A stretch of DNA of 32,000 bases from Thermosulfurimonas dismutans (lineage in GTDB: Bacteria; Desulfobacterota; Thermodesulfobacteria; Thermodesulfobacteriales; Thermodesulfobacteriaceae): contig NZ_LWLG01000003.1 in NCBI RefSeq assembly GCF_001652585.1, forward strand, positions 1 to 32,000, read 5' to 3'. This document shows, in pieces, positions 15,335 through 21,685 of the stretch (the stretch's first letter is position 1; the number at the start of each line of letters is the position of its first letter). Position numbers and translations under genes: made by a program. Under the pieces are notes generated by a model that saw only the letters and a list, made by a program, of their open reading frames with translations, searched no databases and had not been told where the DNA came from.

Positions 15335-15353
15335 ATTTCGGACTTATCACCCA

Positions 15354-15381
15354 GGGCCCGGAAACTTCCCGGGCCCTTTTC
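15354..15381 (+). terminator. Rho-independent terminator after rplQ
   Basis: Perfect 8-bp GC stem GGGCCCGG / CCGGGCCC with a 7-nt loop (AAACTTC), followed by TTTTCTATT. Starts 20 nt after the rplQ stop. Confidence 0.8.
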
Positions 15382-15392
15382 TATTAGTTTTT

Positions 15393-15453
15393 TCCTGACG
15401 CTAAAACTCAGCGTCCGGCGATCATGCCGGTCGGCTGAAATGGATTGTTAAGA
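15393..15453 (-). repeat. attC-like site (terminal, cassette E)
   Basis: Minus-strand read: TCTTAAC...inner arms (CAGCCGACCGGCATGATCGCCGGACGCTGAG)...GTCAGGA. It shares the CTGAA-N-ATTGTTA and ACG-N-AAACTCAGCG blocks with the other copies. Confidence 0.7.
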
Positions 15454-15456
15454 ATT

Positions 15457-15711
15457 TTAATATACTTCCCTTCGATGACCTACTTTTAGGATATAAATCT
15501 CCTTCTTTTTCCAGTCTACATTAAAAAGGACTCTGTAATTCCCTATTCTCAACCTGTAATCTGCTAAAGGATGAGTTTTTAAATGTTTTATTTGTGAAAT
15601 GTTTGGAAAATTTGCTAACTCTTCTATTCCTTGCTTAATTTTTTTCAAGTTCTTCCGATCAATTTTCTTCAAATCTTTAAATACGCTTTTGGCATAAATT
15701 ATTTTAAACAT
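15457..15711 (-). CDS. RelE/ParE-family type II toxin
   Basis: 84 aa; FKDLKKIDRKNLKKIKQGIEEL...YRLRIGNYRVLFNVDWKKKEIYILKVGHRREVY, the classic RelE/ParE C-terminal pattern. Overlaps the upstream small ORF by 8 nt. Confidence 0.85.
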   Translation of the reverse strand: MFKIIYAKSVFKDLKKIDRKNLKKIKQGIEELANFPNISQIKHLKTHPLADYRLRIGNYRVLFNVDWKKKEIYILKVGHRREVY

Positions 15712-15892
15712 TTAATTTTTTCCAAATTTCTTCATGAGTAAAAACCTCTCCATTTTCGATCTCTTTTTTTCTTTCTTCAATTTCTCTTTTAAGCTTTTGG
15801 TATTTTTCTTGCTTTAAAAGAATTTTGGCAAAATATATAATCTTTTCTTTATCTTCAGGATCAAGTTTGTTTAAGATATCCAATTTTTCCAT
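15704..15892 (-). CDS. putative antitoxin (by position, upstream of the RelE/ParE toxin)
   Basis: 62 aa, helical and charged. Translationally coupled to the toxin. GGAG Shine-Dalgarno upstream (AAGTTGGAGAAATATTATG). No family recognised by eye. Confidence 0.6.
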   Translation of the reverse strand: MEKLDILNKLDPEDKEKIIYFAKILLKQEKYQKLKREIEERKKEIENGEVFTHEEIWKKLNV

Positions 15893-15965
15893 AATATTTC
15901 TCCAACTTGCTTAAATCTTTATCTTGCGAAGTAGGACTTATTTTCTTTTTATCTCGGATCGTTCC

Positions 15966-16084
15966 ATTTGTGAAGTATACTCCTTAGCGGTCTATGCGGT
16001 CTTGTTGGGCTGGTAGGCCGGTCAAATATTTGAAAGCGTTTGCGGCTGGGGTTTTGCCAGGTTCGCTGAAGAGGTTTGTTATTA
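15966..16084 (-). repeat. degenerate attC-like site (cassette D / E boundary)
   Basis: Minus-strand read: TAATAAC-AAACCTCTTCAGCGAACC...GACCGCTAAGGAG-TATACTT-CACAAAT. The R''-side block CGCTGAAG-N-TTTGTTA matches the other copies and the inner arms CTCTTCAGCG / CGCTAAGGAG pair. The GTTRRRY box is lost. Confidence 0.45.
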
Positions 16085-16195
16085 CTGGAAGCATCTTTTG
16101 CTAGACACCAGAACCCTATGAATATCAAGGGTTTTGAGGTCTATAAAATGTCTACTCTTTGATGACCCCATTAATATTATTACCGTAACTTTCAT
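16082..16195 (-). CDS. hypothetical micro-ORF (37 aa) in a short cassette
   Basis: My translation: MKVTVIILMGSSKSRHFIDLKTLDIHRVLVSSKRCFQ. Strong Shine-Dalgarno (GAGGTGG, 4 nt before the ATG). The stop TAA lies inside the TAATAAC box, as in the other cassettes. No family recognised. Confidence 0.3.
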   Translation of the reverse strand: MKVTVIILMGSSKSRHFIDLKTLDIHRVLVSSKRCFQ

Positions 16196-16274
16196 GTTCC
16201 CACCTCGAATTTATGTTTTCTCTAACTTAGCTCTTTGTTTTGTATGACGAGAAAATTTTATTTTCATTATTATT

Positions 16275-16346
16275 TTCTAACGTCATGGGTCACTTGCCGC
16301 CAAGGAGCGCAGCGGATTGGCGGTCAAGTGCACCCAATTGTTAGCA
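16275..16346 (-). repeat. attC-like site (cassette C / D boundary)
   Basis: Minus-strand read: TGCTAAC-AATTGGGTGCACTTGACCGCCAATCCGCTGCGCTCCTTGGCGGCAAGTGACCCATGAC-GTTAGAA. Arms TTGACCGCCAA / TTGGCGGCAAG pair. Confidence 0.8.
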
Positions 16347-16348
16347 TT

Positions 16349-17215
16349 TTATTTTAATTCAATGAAAGCTTCTTCATTGTCTGTAAATAATTCTGCAATA
16401 TTATTATGATAAGTAGCTAGCCACGAATATTTGGACTTGATTTTATCGTTTTCTGTAGCATTATATGCATTTCTAATATTATTACCATGTTTTTTTAGCC
16501 AGTAGTCAATATTGTATTGATAACCTTCATTAATAATGCGTTGTCTTTCTTCTTTATTAGCATTATTATAGCGTTCAACTTGTTCTTTGGAATAACGCCA
16601 ATCCAAACCTTCAAGACATATGGTCATATAGTCCAAAAAAATAATTTCTTTATTATCAACTATTCCCTTTCTGAATATACTTAATGGATCTACTTCTGGA
16701 GCATACCATTTCCTATGTGGATGATTCGAGAAATATTCAAACACATCATTAGTTATTGCAATCACCGGCACACTAATGGATTGTTCTAAATGATATGCTT
16801 GCAATAAACTTTTACTAATTATAATATCTTGATCGCTATACCACCATCCGATATCAATTCCTCCCCTTAGAAAAATCGAGTCAAGTACACATGCAGCTTG
16901 AGAATAAGCAAGGCTAAGGAATTCCGACATAAGTGGATCAAAATCGCCTTCACTCTGGGTAGCCTTTGACTTGAGAGGAATATGTATGACCAAACAATCA
17001 GAAAAAGCTAATACTTTTTTGTTATATAATTTGTTTATGTGAGAAATAATTTTTTCTGTTGGTTTATAATAAAATTGTTTTTGAACGTGCCATAATTCTT
17101 TATAAATAGATTGTATCTCTGTAACAGTTTCAATCTTTGCAATCCTATTTCCAAATCCTAAAATATCAATAAATACGGTAATCCCAATGGATATATCTTC
17201 TGGTTTTATCATCAT
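16349..17215 (-). CDS. hypothetical protein with class-III nucleotidyl-cyclase-like motifs (integron cassette C)
   Basis: 288 aa. GITVFIDILGFGN (cf. F-x-D-I-x-G-F-T), VLAFSDCLVI (second acidic strand), FLRGGIDIGW (cf. R-I-G-I-H-x-G). The ~120-aa C-terminal region is unassigned. The ORF call is solid; the function is motif-level only. Confidence 0.8.
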   Translation of the reverse strand: MMIKPEDISIGITVFIDILGFGNRIAKIETVTEIQSIYKELWHVQKQFYYKPTEKIISHINKLYNKKVLAFSDCLVIHIPLKSKATQSEGDFDPLMSEFLSLAYSQAACVLDSIFLRGGIDIGWWYSDQDIIISKSLLQAYHLEQSISVPVIAITNDVFEYFSNHPHRKWYAPEVDPLSIFRKGIVDNKEIIFLDYMTICLEGLDWRYSKEQVERYNNANKEERQRIINEGYQYNIDYWLKKHGNNIRNAYNATENDKIKSKYSWLATYHNNIAELFTDNEEAFIELK

Positions 17216-17221
17216 TTCTTA

Positions 17222-17283
17222 TGCTAACGTCCAAACTCAACGGCTCGGCGTATAGCCGGATCCGCTGAAGCGAATTGTTAGGT
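17222..17283 (-). repeat. attC-like site (cassette B / C boundary)
   Basis: Minus-strand read: ACCTAAC-AATTCGCTTCAGCGGATCCGGCTATACGCCGAGCCGTTGAGTTTGGAC-GTTAGCA. The arms pair imperfectly, leaving unpaired bases. The LemA stop TAA is inside ACCTAAC. Confidence 0.85.
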
Positions 17284-17943
17284 TTCTTGTTTTTCTCTTT
17301 GCGATACACTCTCTAAAGCTTTTTCAACCTTAGCCGAAGCTTTTTCAGCTGCTTCTAAAACTTTTGAAGATGTGGTTTTTATAAGAGCCTTCAACATTTC
17401 TCCATCATCTGTACGAAATTCTTTTAAAGCTTCCACTGCATCTATTTCAATAGAAAAATATGGAGCTTCTTTAAATCCTAGTGTATGAGCTATAAAGACT
17501 GTTGGAATACTATTTCTAGTTGTATTGTATTCTCTAGCTACTGCATTATATTCTTCTCTCTTTTTCTGTAAATCATTTTCCACATTTTCTAGTTGTTTCA
17601 TTAACATTTGATATGTTTCGTTCGCCTTAAGCTCAGGAAAGTTTCTCATAATATTATTTAATTGCCCCAAAATTTTATCAGCTTTTTGGTAGGATGTCAT
17701 TATTTCTGTAATATTAGCTTCTTTTGATATTGTTATATATGTAAGCTTTTCGTGTGACCCATAAGCAGAAGCTATATCAATCAACTTATTTATTAGATCT
17801 AACCTCTTTTTCATTGCCACTAAAATATTTGAATGTGCTTCTTTTACTAAATGAGCTTTTCTCTGTAATGAGTTATACTGAATCCCCAAAAAAAACATTG
17901 TTCCTATTAAAATCAAGAAAACAAAAGACAATATATCAAGCAT
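17278..17943 (-). CDS. lemA: LemA family protein
   Basis: 221 aa. N-terminal TM helix, then YNSLQRKAHLVKEAHSNILVAMKKRLDLINKLID and FPELKANETYQMLMKQLENVENDL...YNAVAREYNTTRNSIPTVFIAHTLGFKEAPYF, the LemA signature blocks. Confidence 0.9.
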   Translation of the reverse strand: MLDILSFVFLILIGTMFFLGIQYNSLQRKAHLVKEAHSNILVAMKKRLDLINKLIDIASAYGSHEKLTYITISKEANITEIMTSYQKADKILGQLNNIMRNFPELKANETYQMLMKQLENVENDLQKKREEYNAVAREYNTTRNSIPTVFIAHTLGFKEAPYFSIEIDAVEALKEFRTDDGEMLKALIKTTSSKVLEAAEKASAKVEKALESVSQREKQET

Positions 17944-17961
17944 TTTAGGCCTCCATAACTT

Positions 17962-18285
17962 TTATTCATTTTTAGGTAATATAATTCCCATTTTTGCTTC
18001 AGCTATCTTAAAATTCGTGCCACTAATATCAACAGCCTTAAATCTTTTTTTAATTAATTCTTTAATATATAATTTATTATAAATAAAAGGAAACACAAAC
18101 CATGATAATCCGCCAGTGATAATAGCTAACAAAAAACTAATAATTGCCCACTTCCAATCACCTCTAAAAAGAGGGACAAAAACTTCAAAAAATAACATAG
18201 TCCATGAAAATCCTATTGGCGCCTCTTTTATTTCTTTGGTAACTGGATGTTGAAAAATAATTTTTCCGTAAGCCATAATCCACAT
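17962..18285 (-). CDS. small two-TM membrane protein (DUF2628-like)
   Basis: 107 aa. GFSWTMLFFEVFVPLFRGDWKWAIISFLLAIITGG resembles the GF-x-W-x-AFFF...W motif of DUF2628-type proteins. Lies 18 nt upstream of lemA in the same cassette. An alternative start is ATG 18276. Confidence 0.75.
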   Translation of the reverse strand: MWIMAYGKIIFQHPVTKEIKEAPIGFSWTMLFFEVFVPLFRGDWKWAIISFLLAIITGGLSWFVFPFIYNKLYIKELIKKRFKAVDISGTNFKIAEAKMGIILPKNE

Positions 18286-18345
18286 CCTAACGCCAAACCT
18301 CAGCGGCCCACTGTAAAGCGGGTCCGCTTAAGAGATTTGTTAGGT
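18285..18345 (-). repeat. attC-like site (cassette A / B boundary)
   Basis: Minus-strand read: ACCTAAC-AAATCTCTTAAGCGGACCCGCTTTACAGTGGGCCGCTGAGGTTTGGC-GTTAGGA. The stop codon of the 366-aa ORF is inside ACCTAAC. The next ORF's ATG abuts GTTAGGA. Confidence 0.85.
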
Positions 18346-19440
18346 GCTCACCTTAAAATCTTTTGACAACATTAACGAGGCCATAGAGGCACTAATAAAA
18401 CATATCCCTTTAATTTTTTTTGCTATTTTAAATCCTTCATTTCTGTAAGTTGAAAGCATTTCTGCTAATTTCCCTAATTTATCAGTTGATAAAACCATTT
18501 TTACAGCAGTTCCACTAAAAAAATGTCTTAGCTGAAAATGTTTTTTACCATTTTCATTTAATAAAATGCCATGGTCACCACTACAAATAAAAAACTCCCC
18601 TCCATTTCTACAAAGGCGACTTGTCATGTACAAACCAAATCCGGAATTGTGCCAAGGATCATTTCTATTAATTCTTCTCCCCTTGAAAACTTTACCAGAT
18701 ATACCAGGTAGCAAGGCCTGTTGAATTGCATCTGAGTGAGATTCTATTTTTAGATAAGGATTACTAGATAAGGCCTTTTTAATCCCTTTACCTGAGTCCA
18801 GTATTGCTATTTCCGCTTTATGATATTGTGGCCAATATTGAGCGCAGTACCATAGGTCAGGGGAATCGCTATGTTCTAAAATATTTCTTAGTATTTCTCT
18901 CAATGAATATGTTATTGTTTCAGCTAAATTTCCATATTTTTGCTGAGTTAATCTTATTGCTAACTCTTCAGATTTTGACTCTATAATTTGTTGGACTGGT
19001 GCCAAATTATCTTTAGCTTCTTTTTCAATATCCGATAACTTCCAAGAAGTTACTGGAAGATATGTACTACTCCCAAATGCTTCACCTGGTTTTTTACCGT
19101 GATCTAGATAAAAAGCCTTAAAAAAGCCCATATGGGCTGCATAATTTTTATTTTGATGGTTTTTACACCAAATACATCTGTGATCATTGAATTTTGAATA
19201 ATCTCGAATAATTTTGGCTACATAAATCATTGAAAATGGCTCAATTCTCCCCATTTGAGCAAAATCAATTACAACTTTATGATTTCGTGGGATAGAAAAT
19301 AAGTTGTCACAAAAGGCCAATACAGCTTCCAGTGATGGATTTTGCGGAAAATATACCAATGTCTTCATTATATGTTGCCTAACATATCTTTTATGCTTTC
19401 TTGGATAGCCCCCCTCTAAGGCTATATTAAATTTGGCCAT
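18340..19440 (-). CDS. hypothetical GHKL/HATPase-domain protein with STAS-like N-terminal region (integron cassette A)
   Basis: 366 aa. N-box-like LREILRNILEHS, G1 ILDSGKGI, G2 NSGFGLYM. The N-terminal KVVIDFAQMGRIEPFSMIYVAKIIRDY looks like an anti-sigma-antagonist (STAS) fold. An alternative start is M25 (19368), just after a GTTAGGC core. Confidence 0.8.
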   Translation of the reverse strand: MAKFNIALEGGYPRKHKRYVRQHIMKTLVYFPQNPSLEAVLAFCDNLFSIPRNHKVVIDFAQMGRIEPFSMIYVAKIIRDYSKFNDHRCIWCKNHQNKNYAAHMGFFKAFYLDHGKKPGEAFGSSTYLPVTSWKLSDIEKEAKDNLAPVQQIIESKSEELAIRLTQQKYGNLAETITYSLREILRNILEHSDSPDLWYCAQYWPQYHKAEIAILDSGKGIKKALSSNPYLKIESHSDAIQQALLPGISGKVFKGRRINRNDPWHNSGFGLYMTSRLCRNGGEFFICSGDHGILLNENGKKHFQLRHFFSGTAVKMVLSTDKLGKLAEMLSTYRNEGFKIAKKIKGICFISASMASLMLSKDFKVST

Positions 19441-19622
19441 ATATCAGAACTTCGCCAAAGTCAAACAGCTTTTTCAATAATTTTTTATGAAAAATTTTTT
19501 ATTTTTAAAATTTTAAAAGATTATTTAGAAATATCTTAAATAAAGAGCTTAAATCTCTCCAAAAAGGATGGTAGCTTTTTATGTAAACTTGAGAGAAGTA
19601 ATATAATTTTCTAATATTCCCT

Positions 19623-20215
19623 TTGGCGTGTAAGCAAAAATGGAAAAGGATAACTTATCTAGCCGTGGAAAGAAACGTGGCGCCCTCTACCCAGAACCAG
19701 GCCTTGAATGCCTTGCTCTTTTTCTACCGTAAGGTCCTCGAAAAAGACATCGCTTCATACATCGAGGCCGTAAAGGCCCGGGAGAGGCCAAGGTTTCCGG
19801 TGGTGCTTTCCGAGCTTGAGGAGACCTATTATCTAGTTTGTGTCCTGATGTACGGAGGAGGTCGCCTAGGAAGCCAGGCGGTAAGATTGTGCGTGAAAGA
19901 TCTTGATCTCGAACGAGGGCTTGTAACGGTCTATTCGGGGAAGGGTGATCGGGACCGGATAACCGTTTTTCCCAAGAGGCTTGTTCTGGAATTTGAAAAT
20001 TACTCGCCAGGGTGCGTAAAATCTACGAGCAGGGTTGGCGGACGGAGGGCGGCGGGGGGCCGCGGTGGTTAGTCAGCTGGATCGCTGAAGGGTTCTTTAG
20101 GGCCGGTTTTTTTCGGTTGAAGGGGCCATCGGCCCCGAATAGAATGTCCCTAGGGTCGGCTCTTCCTATACCCAGGGGTAAAAAGGCTTCAAGGAAATTC
20201 TTTGCGGAGCGTTCG
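19623..20215 (+). pseudogene. intI: integron integrase (IntI-like tyrosine recombinase) remnant, 5'- and 3'-truncated and frameshifted
   Basis: LAVERNVAPSTQNQALNALLFFYRKVL...RFPVVLS...RLCVKDLDLERGLVTVYSGKGDRDRITVFP is colinear with IntI1 (STHRQALAALLFFYGKVL...[24 protein letters not shown]). The reading frame switches near 20005 (VRKIYEQ...EGGGG continues in another frame). The ~55 N-terminal aa and the whole catalytic C-terminal half are absent. Confidence 0.75.
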
Positions 20216-20218
20216 AGC

Positions 20219-21685
20219 ATGGGTAAAGATCCCGGTGGGCAGGTCGGAGGGCTTCTTTCGTATCTGGCGCTGAAAGAATCTCTGGCTGAAATCCAAAACT
20301 TTTTGCAGGAGCTGGCCAGGAGGGGCGAGGTTTATGTCACCGGAGGAGCGGTAAGGGATATCCTGCGGGGAGATAGGGTAGGAGACCTGGACCTCACGGT
20401 GGTGGATCTCTCTCCGCGAGAGGTGGCGGAGGAGGCCGCAAGGAGGCTTTCCTGGGCTCTGGTTCCGCTTCACGAGGAGTTCGGAGTCTTCCGGGTGGCG
20501 CGCGGGAGTTTTAGCCTGGATATTTCCGGCCTTCGTCCCGGGGCTATGAATATTGAGGACGATCTTCGGTTGAGGGACTTTTCCTTCAATGCCCTGGCAG
20601 TTCCTCTTTCTAAAGCCCTTGAGAGATCGCCTTCGGAGTGGCCTCTTCTTGATCCCTGCCAAGGGCTTCGGGATCTTAAAGCTGGTCTGATCCGGGCTAT
20701 CTCTCGACAAAATCTTATAGATGATCCCTTGAGGATCTTAAGGGCCTATCGTTTTTACGCCTTGGGATTCGGAGAAATAGAGGCGGAGACCCGGAGGTGG
20801 CTTTCGGCAGAAAGGGCAAGGCTTTCGAAGGTAGCCCGGGAGCGCATTCTCTATGAGCTTATGCTCATTCTCGGCCGAATGGCTGGAGAGGCCTTTTCCC
20901 TTATGGCCGAAGACGAGGTTCTCTTCGAGATCTTTCCCGAATTCGCGGAAGCCCGGGGGGTGCCCCAACCCTCCTTCCATCACCTGGATGTTCTGGGCCA
21001 CAGCCTTCTCGCCCTCGCAAGAGCCGAGGAGGTCCTGCGGGCCCCGGGTAAGTTTTTCGGGGATCCCGAACCCTTCGCGGAACTTCTCTCAGACCCCGAG
21101 CGAAGGATAGCCGTCAAATTGGCCGCCCTTTTTCACGACCTCGGGAAACCGAGAACTTTTGCCGTTCGGGACCGGATCACCTTTTACGAACACGAAAAAG
21201 TGGGGGCCCGGATCTTTCTTGAGATGGCGGAACGATTGCGTTTCAAGAAGGATCTCGCTAAAAGGGTAGCCCATCTCATCCGGAACCACATGCGGCCCTT
21301 TCATTTACTTGCTGAAAAAGAAAAAGGCCGACTTACAGCCAGGGCCAAGAGGAGGCTTTTGAGGGATGTTCCAGAGTATCCCGATCTCTTTGTGGTGGCC
21401 ATGGCAGATGGTCTGGCGGCGAGAGGTCCGGACAAGGACCCAGACGAAGAGGAAAAACTTGCAGAATTTTTTAGGGAACTCCACGAGTTTTACCGAGAAA
21501 CCTTGCGGAAGGTGGAGAGGAAGAGACTGGTTACCGGCCGTGACCTCATAGAGATCTTCGGACTTGCGCCTGGTCCCATCTTCCGGAAACTCCTTGAAGC
21601 CGTAGAGGAGGCCCAGGTTGAGGGCCGGGTAAAGACCCGCGAAGAGGCCCTGGAGTATATCGCCGGAATCATAGATACCTTATAG
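20219..21685 (+). CDS. cca: CCA-adding tRNA nucleotidyltransferase (PolyA-pol head plus HD domain)
   Basis: GGAVRDILRGDRVGDLDL head motif, RLRDFSFNA, HD-domain HHLDVLGHSL...ALFHDLGKP. The track ORF starts at 20012, but its first 69 aa read through intI debris. ATG 20219 (or 20144) is the likely start. Confidence 0.85.
   Translation: MGKDPGGQVGGLLSYLALKESLAEIQNFLQELARRGEVYVTGGAVRDILRGDRVGDLDLTVVDLSPREVAEEAARRLSWALVPLHEEFGVFRVARGSFSLDISGLRPGAMNIEDDLRLRDFSFNALAVPLSKALERSPSEWPLLDPCQGLRDLKAGLIRAISRQNLIDDPLRILRAYRFYALGFGEIEAETRRWLSAERARLSKVARERILYELMLILGRMAGEAFSLMAEDEVLFEIFPEFAEARGVPQPSFHHLDVLGHSLLALARAEEVLRAPGKFFGDPEPFAELLSDPERRIAVKLAALFHDLGKPRTFAVRDRITFYEHEKVGARIFLEMAERLRFKKDLAKRVAHLIRNHMRPFHLLAEKEKGRLTARAKRRLLRDVPEYPDLFVVAMADGLAARGPDKDPDEEEKLAEFFRELHEFYRETLRKVERKRLVTGRDLIEIFGLAPGPIFRKLLEAVEEAQVEGRVKTREEALEYIAGIIDTL

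Follow-up and report, generated by a model that had tools for sequence, protein, structure and literature searches.

A class III cyclase-fold protein carried as a single-gene integron cassette in Thermosulfurimonas dismutans, a possible toxin-type effector

What does a stand-alone protein that resembles a nucleotidyl cyclase do when its gene travels in less than 1 kb of DNA, with no recognisable effector beside it? The question is raised by an open reading frame (ORF) of Thermosulfurimonas dismutans, TDIS_0737, at positions 16349-17215 on the minus strand of the 32,000-nt stretch analysed here (contig NZ_LWLG01000003.1, positions 1 to 32,000; hereafter the window). An earlier note, made from the letters of the window, had described a single-gene cassette encoding a divergent cyclase-like protein and had raised, among other possibilities, a role like that of the sensor half of a Pycsar- or CBASS-type defence system. 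Here, we report that the gene is a cassette of a small chromosomal integron and that its product has the class III nucleotidyl-cyclase fold, two points that are near certain. The explanation to which we lean, and which we regard as moderately probable as a whole, is that of an integron-borne, stand-alone enzyme of this fold that acts as a toxin-type effector and not as a Pycsar/CBASS signal generator; the toxin-effector role taken by itself is about evenly balanced.

The target ORF, on the minus strand, starts with the ATG at 17215, ends with the stop codon at 16349-16351 and specifies 288 aa, whereas TDIS_0737 as annotated by NCBI begins at the second methionine and has 287 aa. A word-indexed search of 5.8 billion clusters returned 28 homologues from scattered phyla with E-values down to 1e-89, among which D17, G20, D73, F115, R117, G118, G123 and P150 are invariant. 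The three motifs on which the cyclase resemblance had first been built are located as claimed and match these positions. Motif 1, GITVFIDILGFGN (residues 11-23; 17147-17185, minus strand), carries the first metal-binding aspartate, D17, and the phosphate-binding xGF loop, and aligns to class III FADIxGFT. Motif 2, KVLAFSDCLVIHI (residues 67-79; 16979-17017, minus strand), is the beta2-beta3 hairpin with the second metal-binding aspartate, D73, and is the counterpart of class III (I/L)GD(A/C); hhalign places this stretch 2 out of register, the DC-DC match being evident by sequence. Motif 3, FLRGGIDIGW (residues 115-124; 16844-16873, minus strand), is the beta4 strand with R117 and is equivalent to class III RIGIHxG (lRiGih.G). 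In a residue census of 228 superfamily sequences with a mean identity of about 18%, position 17 is Asp in 208 of 209 sequences and position 73 in all 219, with S72 kept in 204 of the latter. G20 is present in 211/211 and F21 in 185/211, and R117, G118 and G123 are found in 220, 224 and 209 of 225, respectively. A chance resemblance is excluded by the homologues and the census together.

The fold was assigned from a model made with AlphaFold 2 (AF2), which has a predicted local distance difference test score (pLDDT) of 95.5 and a predicted template modelling score (pTM) of 0.91. AF2 secondary structure, Foldseek and hhalign delimit a cyclase-type (palm) core of residues 1-194, terminal beta-hairpin 181-194 included (16634-17215, minus strand). 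When the model was compared with the Protein Data Bank (PDB) by Foldseek, the top 50 matches were all class III adenylate or guanylate cyclase domains (E about 5e-6, probability 1.00), 78 matches fell at E<=1e-3, and the alignments covered 190-220 columns against cyclase domains of about 190 aa. The sole significant match in a structure search of BFVD was likewise a cyclase-type protein, GGDEF proteins reaching E 0.14. At the profile level, hhalign aligned residues 12-164 to the class III profile with 89% probability (E 2.2e-6), as against 0.4% for GGDEF, a value by which a GGDEF relationship of the family was ruled out. The equivalences in this alignment are FIDILGF to FADIxGFT, AFSDC to IGD(A/C), FLRGGIDIG to lRIGIHxG and ISxxL(V/L)xAYxxE to GdtVNxAsRmE. 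Among sequence models, Pfam, NCBIfam and PADLOC gave nothing significant with the target protein (PADLOC, 0 families), Pfam had no match to Guanylate_cyc (PF00211) even at E<=1 and none to mCpol, and PDB sequence searches with the protein (phmmer) and with the profile returned nothing relevant. In PHROGs the target matches phrog_23933 alone, a family of unknown function (E 5e-14). Model and profile searches thus show that the protein has the class III fold with the metal Asp pair, the phosphate loop G20-F21 and the beta4 Arg retained, so that the proposal of a divergent cyclase-like protein holds on structure and is not a coincidence of motifs.

What the family has not retained is equally consistent. 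The segment ISKSLLQAYHLE (16784-16819, minus strand) is a remnant of the class III 'G..VNxAxRxE' helix in which Ala and Glu persist, with Leu standing at the Asn position and His at that of the Arg. In the census the structural Ala and Glu of this alpha4 helix survive (A140 in 207/227, E144 in 220/227), whereas the column of the transition-state Asn holds Asn in 0/227 sequences (V 119, I 42, A 30, L 14), and the Arg column is without conservation (E 52, K 48, R 38, D 18 and others). In class III cyclases the Asn and Arg and the base-specifying residues come from the other subunit of the dimer, and catalysis requires them, the base-specifying pair being Lys/Asp for ATP and Glu/Cys for GTP. The columns aligned to this pair in the target family (L69, I132) are mostly hydrophobic, with the hhalign register near beta2-beta3 uncertain by 2 residues. 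Given the missing class III Asn and the lack of conservation at the Arg and base-specifying positions, a canonical cyclase is unlikely, and since class III catalysis depends on these residues, we do not assign the protein to the class III cyclases, whose fold and ancestry it clearly shares. It rather resembles a 'C1-type' half-site, in which the half that binds nucleoside triphosphate (NTP) and metal is intact and the cyclisation-specific half is missing. The family conserves polar residues of its own, namely Q106, S134 and Y141 in the core and H243, K262, Y263, W265, H270 and N271 in the C-terminal part.

The C-terminal part, residues 196-288 (16352-16630, minus strand), is a family-specific unit of four helices that AF2 folds alone with a pLDDT of 96.6. 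Its fold has no significant counterpart in the PDB (best E 3.3, generic helical hairpins). The description of this W/Y/N-rich region as unassignable therefore stands; its length had been put at about 120 aa and is actually about 93 aa, because the core with its final beta-hairpin reaches to about residue 194. The unit contains the signature KYSWLATYHN (16403-16432, minus strand; K262, Y263, W265, L266, Y269, H270, N271), for which the census gave K262 in 176/179, Y263 in 168/179, W265 in 162/179, H270 in 154/178 and N271 in 156/178 sequences. Since KYxWL..YHN is kept even in short distant relatives of 215-260 aa, the unit is integral to the family and not an added sensor domain.

The surroundings of the gene explain how so small a unit is delimited. 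It lies in an AT-rich array, 15440-19620, with a G+C content of 0.19-0.47 against about 0.52 in the flanks, between the rplQ terminator (15353-15377) and a tyrosine-recombinase fragment that is probably the remnant of an integron-integrase gene, intI. This island follows directly on the ribosomal-protein/rpoA/rplQ operon, and the unannotated integron as a whole spans 15393-20072 and has at least four cassettes. An attC element was found at all four cassette junctions and reads, on the coding strand, yCTAACAA..CAGCgGAC..loop..GcCGCTGAg..TTTGgCGTTAGgA. The four sites have 18 consensus pairs in common, 6 of them with compensatory changes on both sides, and a covariance model built from the four sites found no others in the window (E 1e-14 to 5e-19 for the four, next best E >5). 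All are on the minus strand. The site after the first cassette, which encodes a 366-aa protein, is at 18285-18345 (hairpin -16.3 kcal/mol, z -4.5, 0/200 shuffles as good; model E 5e-19). The site of the preceding cassette, with genes for a membrane protein and a LemA-family protein, is at 17222-17283 (model E 2e-17; hairpin weak, z -1.2), and its R' box forms the 5' boundary of the target cassette; this junction reads ACCTAAC...hairpin...GTTAGCA. The TAA stop codon of the upstream ORF lies inside the R'' box at two junctions, after the 366-aa gene and after LemA (ACCTAAC). The target's own attC (16275-16346; R'' TGCTAAC ... R' GTTAGAA) begins 3 nt past the stop codon and forms a DNA hairpin of -19.0 kcal/mol (z -4.8, 0/200 shuffles as good; model E 9e-15). 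The last site, 15393-15453, follows a RelB/ParE-type toxin-antitoxin (TA) cassette and has a degenerate R' box, GTCAGGA (z -2.4; model E 1.4e-16). A strict RYYYAAC...GTTRRRY regular expression gave 2 matches in the window, none of which passed the filters, the pattern being too strict for these sites; no att repeats and no tRNA target of the island were found.

The target cassette, measured in the attC alignments from the TT in the R' box upstream as far as the G in the R' box of its own site, comprises 947 bp (16281-17227, minus strand) and consists of a 12-nt leader, one ORF and the 72-nt attC, with no space for a second gene or a promoter. The term single-gene cassette, used before any attC had been recognised, turns out to be literally correct: the ORF is bounded by an attC on either side and no effector gene lies inside. 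The target gene is thus, with near certainty, a promoterless single-ORF cassette of a small chromosomal integron, whose integrase gene would be the decayed fragment beside the array. This structure explains the co-orientation of the genes, their short spacers, the G+C bumps at the junctions, the presence of a TA cassette and the independent assortment of the neighbours. The integrase fragment (19623-20072, plus strand) is divergent from the cassettes and encodes 149 aa of a 5'-truncated protein with Phage_int_SAM_4 (E 1e-10) and partial Phage_integrase matches; its closest solved relative is IntI4 of V. cholerae (2a3v, E 2e-13), with XerA at 7e-9. It is regarded as decayed because about 45 N-terminal residues and the C-terminal half are missing, and no match to a continuation was found in the next reading frame; the IntI-specific insertion would fall beyond the surviving fragment. 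The region 19441-19622, where attI and Pc are to be sought, has a G+C content of 19-25% and offers a half-site-like sequence and weak consensus promoter matches only.

The association with integrons recurs among relatives. In Thauera (L008; loci of relatives are numbered L001 and onwards) an attC begins 5 nt past the stop codon of the homologue (E 6.5e-5 under the first covariance model and 1e-10 under the second), in an array with an intact divergent IntI (IntI4 E 4.7e-62). Ectothiorhodospira (L042) has a six-site attC array with a site that overlaps or directly follows the 3' end of the homologue, Shewanella (L028) has one attC site overlapping it, and the second-closest relative (46% identity, metagenome contigs L089/L090) has attC on both sides (E 4e-9 to 1e-7). 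A model-free TAAC/GTTA hairpin test, insensitive next to the covariance model, was positive in 3/66 family loci and 4/487 controls, a weak enrichment. In the Geobacteraceae loci L003/L004, weak matches to the attC model (L004 1016-1084 and 3531-3593, E 0.19 and 0.29) fall exactly in the gaps between co-oriented genes for RelA_SpoT, the homologue, 8xMP, DUF5677 and further proteins, a string that could represent a further integron array whose attC type has diverged.

One distant relative has been studied experimentally. A translated search (tblastn) with a relative from Enterobacter led to 'hypothetical' genes in P2-like Burkholderia phages, among them gp8 of phi52237 (YP_293707.1), which lies in the variable cargo region of the integrase-portal interval beside another TA pair. 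It starts 3 bp downstream of gp9, which encodes a SocA_Panacea protein (E 8e-18). The gp9-gp8 pair is PanA-PanT(Bur. phage), a type II toxin-antitoxin pair described by Kurata et al. 2022 (PMC8832971). According to these authors PanT alone is toxic in E. coli and is neutralised through a direct complex with PanA; HHpred ties it to adenylate/guanylate cyclases at 97%, and it is designated a 'putative nucleotide cyclase'. Transcription is inhibited most, followed by translation and then replication, and PanT triggers RelA-dependent ppGpp with GTP slightly down and ATP unchanged, and no product was identified (PMC8832971); no later work on the chemistry of PanT was found in the literature. The target family aligns to PanT by hhalign with 98.65% probability (E 4.8e-16) over 229 columns, target residues 9-277, which include all catalytic motifs; the family's hidden Markov model (HMM) matches YP_293707.1 at E 1e-15. 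This link and the integron architecture are what the earlier note had overlooked, although its fold and its single-gene cassette stand.

A SocA_Panacea gene was not found in the AT-rich island by ORF list or Pfam, nor was a hidden antitoxin beside the target, where there was no supported small ORF and no Rfam family. A weak terminator-like hairpin considered as an antitoxin RNA was rejected, since it proved to be the attC site.

PanT and the target belong to a large superfamily. An exhaustive profile search returned 11,355 cluster representatives at E<=1e-3, 6,854 at 1e-10 and 358 at 1e-30, and a broader profile returned at least 1,921 database clusters, which included Serratia, Hafnia, Proteus, Enterobacter, Aeromonas and Shewanella; Bacillus plasmids and prophages also carry members. 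Nearly all clusters are annotated as 'hypothetical protein' without a Pfam domain, one being auto-named 'Guanylate cyclase domain-containing protein', and no model of the superfamily exists in Pfam, NCBIfam or PADLOC. The target family itself is patchily distributed across phyla. Most of its copies lie on chromosomes, in integrons or on plasmids and not in lytic phages: relatives were found in 41 records of conjugative and other plasmids, on 16 viral contigs and in P2-like prophages, and a tblastn search of 50,697 phage records with the target protein gave no match.

Genomic contexts were examined in about 65 loci. In the long-form clade, to which the target belongs, no neighbour family occurs in more than 3/27 loci, and there is no conserved partner. 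The mobile elements beside long forms are represented by integrases and a TrwC relaxase. Genes of conflict systems near them encode type I and MmeI-type restriction-modification (R-M), LmuA (E 4e-214), AbiEi (5e-94), SspE and PtuA-like ATPases, and further neighbours are OLD-TOPRIM, AAA_13, RES-HTH, RelA_SpoT, SNIPE/T5orf172, GIY-YIG and YobI. The gene neighbourhoods thus mix ordinary genes with mobile and defence-related ones and are not the uniformly housekeeping context that the earlier note had named as refuting its idea. The domain also occurs in fusions (L016:9107-10948, L018:9113-10942, L032:9758-10834, P0027, P0148), which comprise proteins of about 610 aa with an uncharacterised N-terminal region of 290 aa, a fusion to an N-terminal DUF433, and proteins with an N-terminal P-loop NTPase (weak AAA_22/nSTAND5). 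A module that recombines with many regulators shows, we infer, the pattern expected of an effector or toxin domain.

Arrangements with different partners in other parts of the family add to this pattern. A short-form clade (215-240 aa) always lies behind a gene for a 345-366-aa ParA/MinD-type ATPase (AAA_31/CbiA), with stop and start codons overlapping or nearly so (L024, L026, L027, L034-L037, L040, L041 and L060; at about 8.9-10.7 kb in each locus). The pair sits at unrelated sites beside RhuM/UvrB, RNR, NYN, PIN_8 or Sel1 genes, and it is an uncharacterised mobile two-gene module. The 366-aa protein of the island was considered as a homologue of this ParA-like partner and ruled out, with no HMM match. 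On a 2.5-kb metagenomic contig (L091:595-1981) a ThsB-like TIR gene overlaps the start of a homologue 44% identical to the target; this one instance may be a two-gene unit of TIR plus cyclase-fold protein. In L013:8484-13614 a homologue lies between a gene resembling the type I R-M specificity gene (HsdS) and one for a 911-aa SMC/AAA_21 ATPase, with 4-nt overlaps.

From these findings a mechanism may be proposed. The target protein would bind NTP-Mg2+ and perform a nucleotidyl transfer with release of pyrophosphate, other than ordinary cAMP/cGMP synthesis. It would itself be the effector, and its product, whether an uncommon nucleotide or an RNA or protein target that it has nucleotidylated, would bring transcription and translation to a halt in the way seen with PanT in E. 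coli. The service rendered to the host or to the integron could be abortive infection or another defence, or an addiction-type function. As there is no antitoxin space in the cassette, the clade would be kept in check by weak read-through or by the protein itself; control could accordingly be exerted by low read-through expression from upstream cassettes, or intramolecularly via the C-terminal unit, which may also provide the missing catalytic residues in cis.

Several observations weigh against the toxin-type effector reading. Toxicity is demonstrated for PanT only, and the homology between PanT and the target is at the profile level: their identity is about 19% and pairwise BLAST is insignificant, and toxicity may therefore not transfer. 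The target clade, the Enterobacterales and Aeromonas clades and most others are without an antitoxin-like neighbour, something rarely expected when a toxin is constitutive. Ordinary housekeeping genes make up about half of what lies beside the long forms, and the enrichment in 'defence islands' is a qualitative judgement. Sites of the attC type are detectable in only 5 of the roughly 65 family loci.

A more specific version of the toxin-type effector, which we hold as tentative, would make the protein a single-protein, trigger-activated conflict enzyme. The Asn and Arg supplied in trans would be dispensed with, K262, H270 and N271 of the C-terminal unit would complete the active site in cis, and transcription would be shut down by the product, either a nucleotide of non-canonical kind or a target, RNA or RNA polymerase, that has been nucleotidylated, the whole being spread as a self-sufficient integron cassette of <1 kb.

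It is unlikely that the protein generates a signal as the 'sensor half' of a Pycsar-, CBASS- or Panoptes-like system, in which a cyclic nucleotide activates or restrains a remote effector or a host cyclic nucleotide (cNMP) receptor. The class III fold with its intact metal and phosphate site would suit such a role, as would the one UniRef relative auto-named guanylate cyclase domain protein, and in L026 a cNMP-binding SulP transporter is encoded about 2 kb away on the opposite strand. The 947-bp cassette is, however, one ORF, no PycC or other PADLOC model matches, and a recurrent cNMP-binding, TIR or transmembrane effector was not found beside family members in the loci examined. The catalytic set of class III is incomplete throughout the family, as set out above, and PanT is toxic in E. 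coli without a cognate effector (PMC8832971). The sensor-half idea raised in the earlier note is not supported on these grounds.

An active and benign accessory enzyme, carried by the integron outside any conflict and serving a niche second messenger or nucleotide metabolism, is just as improbable in our estimation. Most integron cassettes have functions that are unknown and diverse (10.64898/2026.03.17.712381), and several relatives lie between housekeeping genes with no defence gene close by and no antitoxin. Set against this are the profile-level homology to a validated toxin, the relatives paired with a Panacea antitoxin or fused to the antitoxin-type DUF433, and a patchy distribution across phyla in which R-M, Abi, Lamassu and TA genes, prophage cargo regions and plasmids are met repeatedly.

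More doubtful still is a counter-defence gene of benefit to phages, by which decoy nucleotides would be made or host immune signals consumed. The relatives on viral contigs and in P2-like prophages and the match to phrog_23933 speak for it, but the phi52237 copy is antitoxin-paired and lies among TA genes in a cargo region on the lysogeny side, and the mostly chromosomal, integron-borne or plasmid-borne copies and the empty phage search speak otherwise. We find it similarly hard to credit a pseudo-enzyme, a cyclase-fold scaffold binding only nucleotide or a partner. The loss of Asn and Arg recalls the catalytically incomplete C1-type half-domains, but the metal Asp pair, the Gly loop and the Arg are near-absolute in the 228 sequences, as catalysis predicts, and conservation extends to further polar residues specific to the family. 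A system of several genes formed with the neighbours in the island, including the partnership with the LemA/membrane pair suggested earlier, is largely refuted: the genes for the target, LemA, the membrane protein and the 366-aa protein are on one strand with gaps of 54, 18 and 62 nt and are probably co-transcribed by read-through in the array, but attC sites divide them into three cassettes, and their relatives and the family never co-occur, since no relative of LemA, the membrane protein or the 366-aa protein was found in about 60 family loci and no cyclase-like gene in the nine loci of the membrane protein or the two of the 366-aa protein on viral contigs.

The neighbouring cassettes have features of their own. 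The 366-aa protein of the first cassette (18340-19440, minus strand) has a match in PHROGs (phrog_3364, E 1.5e-27) and none in Pfam or among PDB sequences; PADLOC gives a weak match to the N-terminal part of DrmA (E 1.3e-7), and relatives occur alone on two viral contigs. The second cassette (17278-18285, minus strand) has two ORFs 18 nt apart, for a 107-aa membrane protein (phrog_4915) and the LemA-family protein, a pair that is not fixed, because relatives of the membrane protein occur on nine viral contigs that lack LemA. The RelB/ParE-type pair of the last cassette (15457-15892, minus strand; ParE_toxin E 1e-12) is typical of chromosomal integrons. About 385 nt (15893-16275) separate the target attC from the antitoxin gene, and this stretch contains a 37-aa ORF (16082-16195, minus strand) with a Shine-Dalgarno-like GAGGTGG and a stop codon within AATAACAAACCTCTTCAGCGAAC, the 5' half of the local attC consensus. 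At a possible fifth attC, about 15975-16087, the 5' half matches, and no 3' half, hairpin or covariance-model match was found; the stretch may represent a mini-cassette that has degenerated, or may serve the TA cassette as its promoter leader. On the other side, the intI remnant (19623-20272, plus strand) overlaps the 5' end of a long ORF for a CCA-adding enzyme (20012-21685), whose true start is probably further downstream because its first domain begins at residue 107.

The toxin-type effector reading touches on a superfamily of more than 11,000 clusters that is unnamed and of which the single studied member stops transcription. With the half of the active site that binds nucleotide and metal retained and the cyclising residues missing, the family points to a different reaction. 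A sub-kilobase, antitoxin-free cassette raises the question of how its enzyme stays silent and what switches it on. In addition, an unannotated integron is documented in a thermophilic Thermodesulfobacteriota genome, and its covariance model finds the same attC type in other phyla.

When compared with class III adenylate and guanylate cyclases (PF00211; CyaB 3r5g, Cya2 2w01, Ma1120 4wp9, sAC 8co7/4clt, sGC 4ni2), the target is alike in fold (template modelling scores of 0.5-0.65, target-normalised) and in the order and spacing of the beta1 Asp, the beta2-beta3 Asp, the beta4 Arg and the alpha4 Ala and Glu. It differs in the absent catalytic Asn, the unconserved Arg position, the mostly hydrophobic residues in the columns aligned to the base-specifying pair and the extra 93-aa helical unit. 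With Pycsar, in which PycC is paired with an effector (Tal et al. 2021; PMC11224242), it has in common a class III-type fold in phage-bacteria conflict and small mobile operons, but it lacks a PycC match in PADLOC, an adjacent cNMP-binding transmembrane or TIR effector and the full catalytic set, and the relative that has been tested is self-toxic. Panoptes mCpol, the Cas10 palm and GGDEF (PMC12657230, PMC12657218) offer a related palm with two acidic metal ligands and stand-alone minimal enzymes in defence loci. In contrast to these, the target hairpin reads FSD, with no GGDEF/GGDD, and there is no 2TM-beta or CARF partner, mCpol being judged by Pfam only; GGDEF, at 0.4% hhalign probability, is about 10,000-fold worse than cyclases in BFVD.

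Recent studies report that phage resistance is often conferred by integron cassettes whose function was unknown (10.1101/2024.07.02.601719; PMC12614218), and sedentary chromosomal integrons are described as reservoirs of defence functions (PMC12614218). Phage-resistance integron cassettes (BRiCs; Kieffer et al., 10.1101/2024.07.02.601719) are, like the target cassette with its defence-type relatives, short, promoterless and single-ORF, with a 3' attC in a co-oriented array that includes a TA cassette. The integron described here differs in being small, with a decayed integrase and a thermophilic Thermodesulfobacteriota host. No cyclase-fold cassette was found in the integron cassette literature consulted (10.1101/2024.07.02.601719, PMC12614218, 10.64898/2026.03.17.712381). 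PanT is the nearest comparison: the FIDILGF, FSD, RGG and AYxxE...P motifs are common to both proteins, which have 314 aa (PanT) and 288 aa (target) and are both cargo of a mobile element. Of the KYxWL..YHN signature PanT retains just a part (K and N), and the target cassette has neither a PanA (DUF4065/SocA_Panacea) antitoxin nor room for one. One cyclase-fold toxin on a mobile element was thus known already; what is added here is a different clade, antitoxin-free and integron-borne, within a huge unnamed superfamily.

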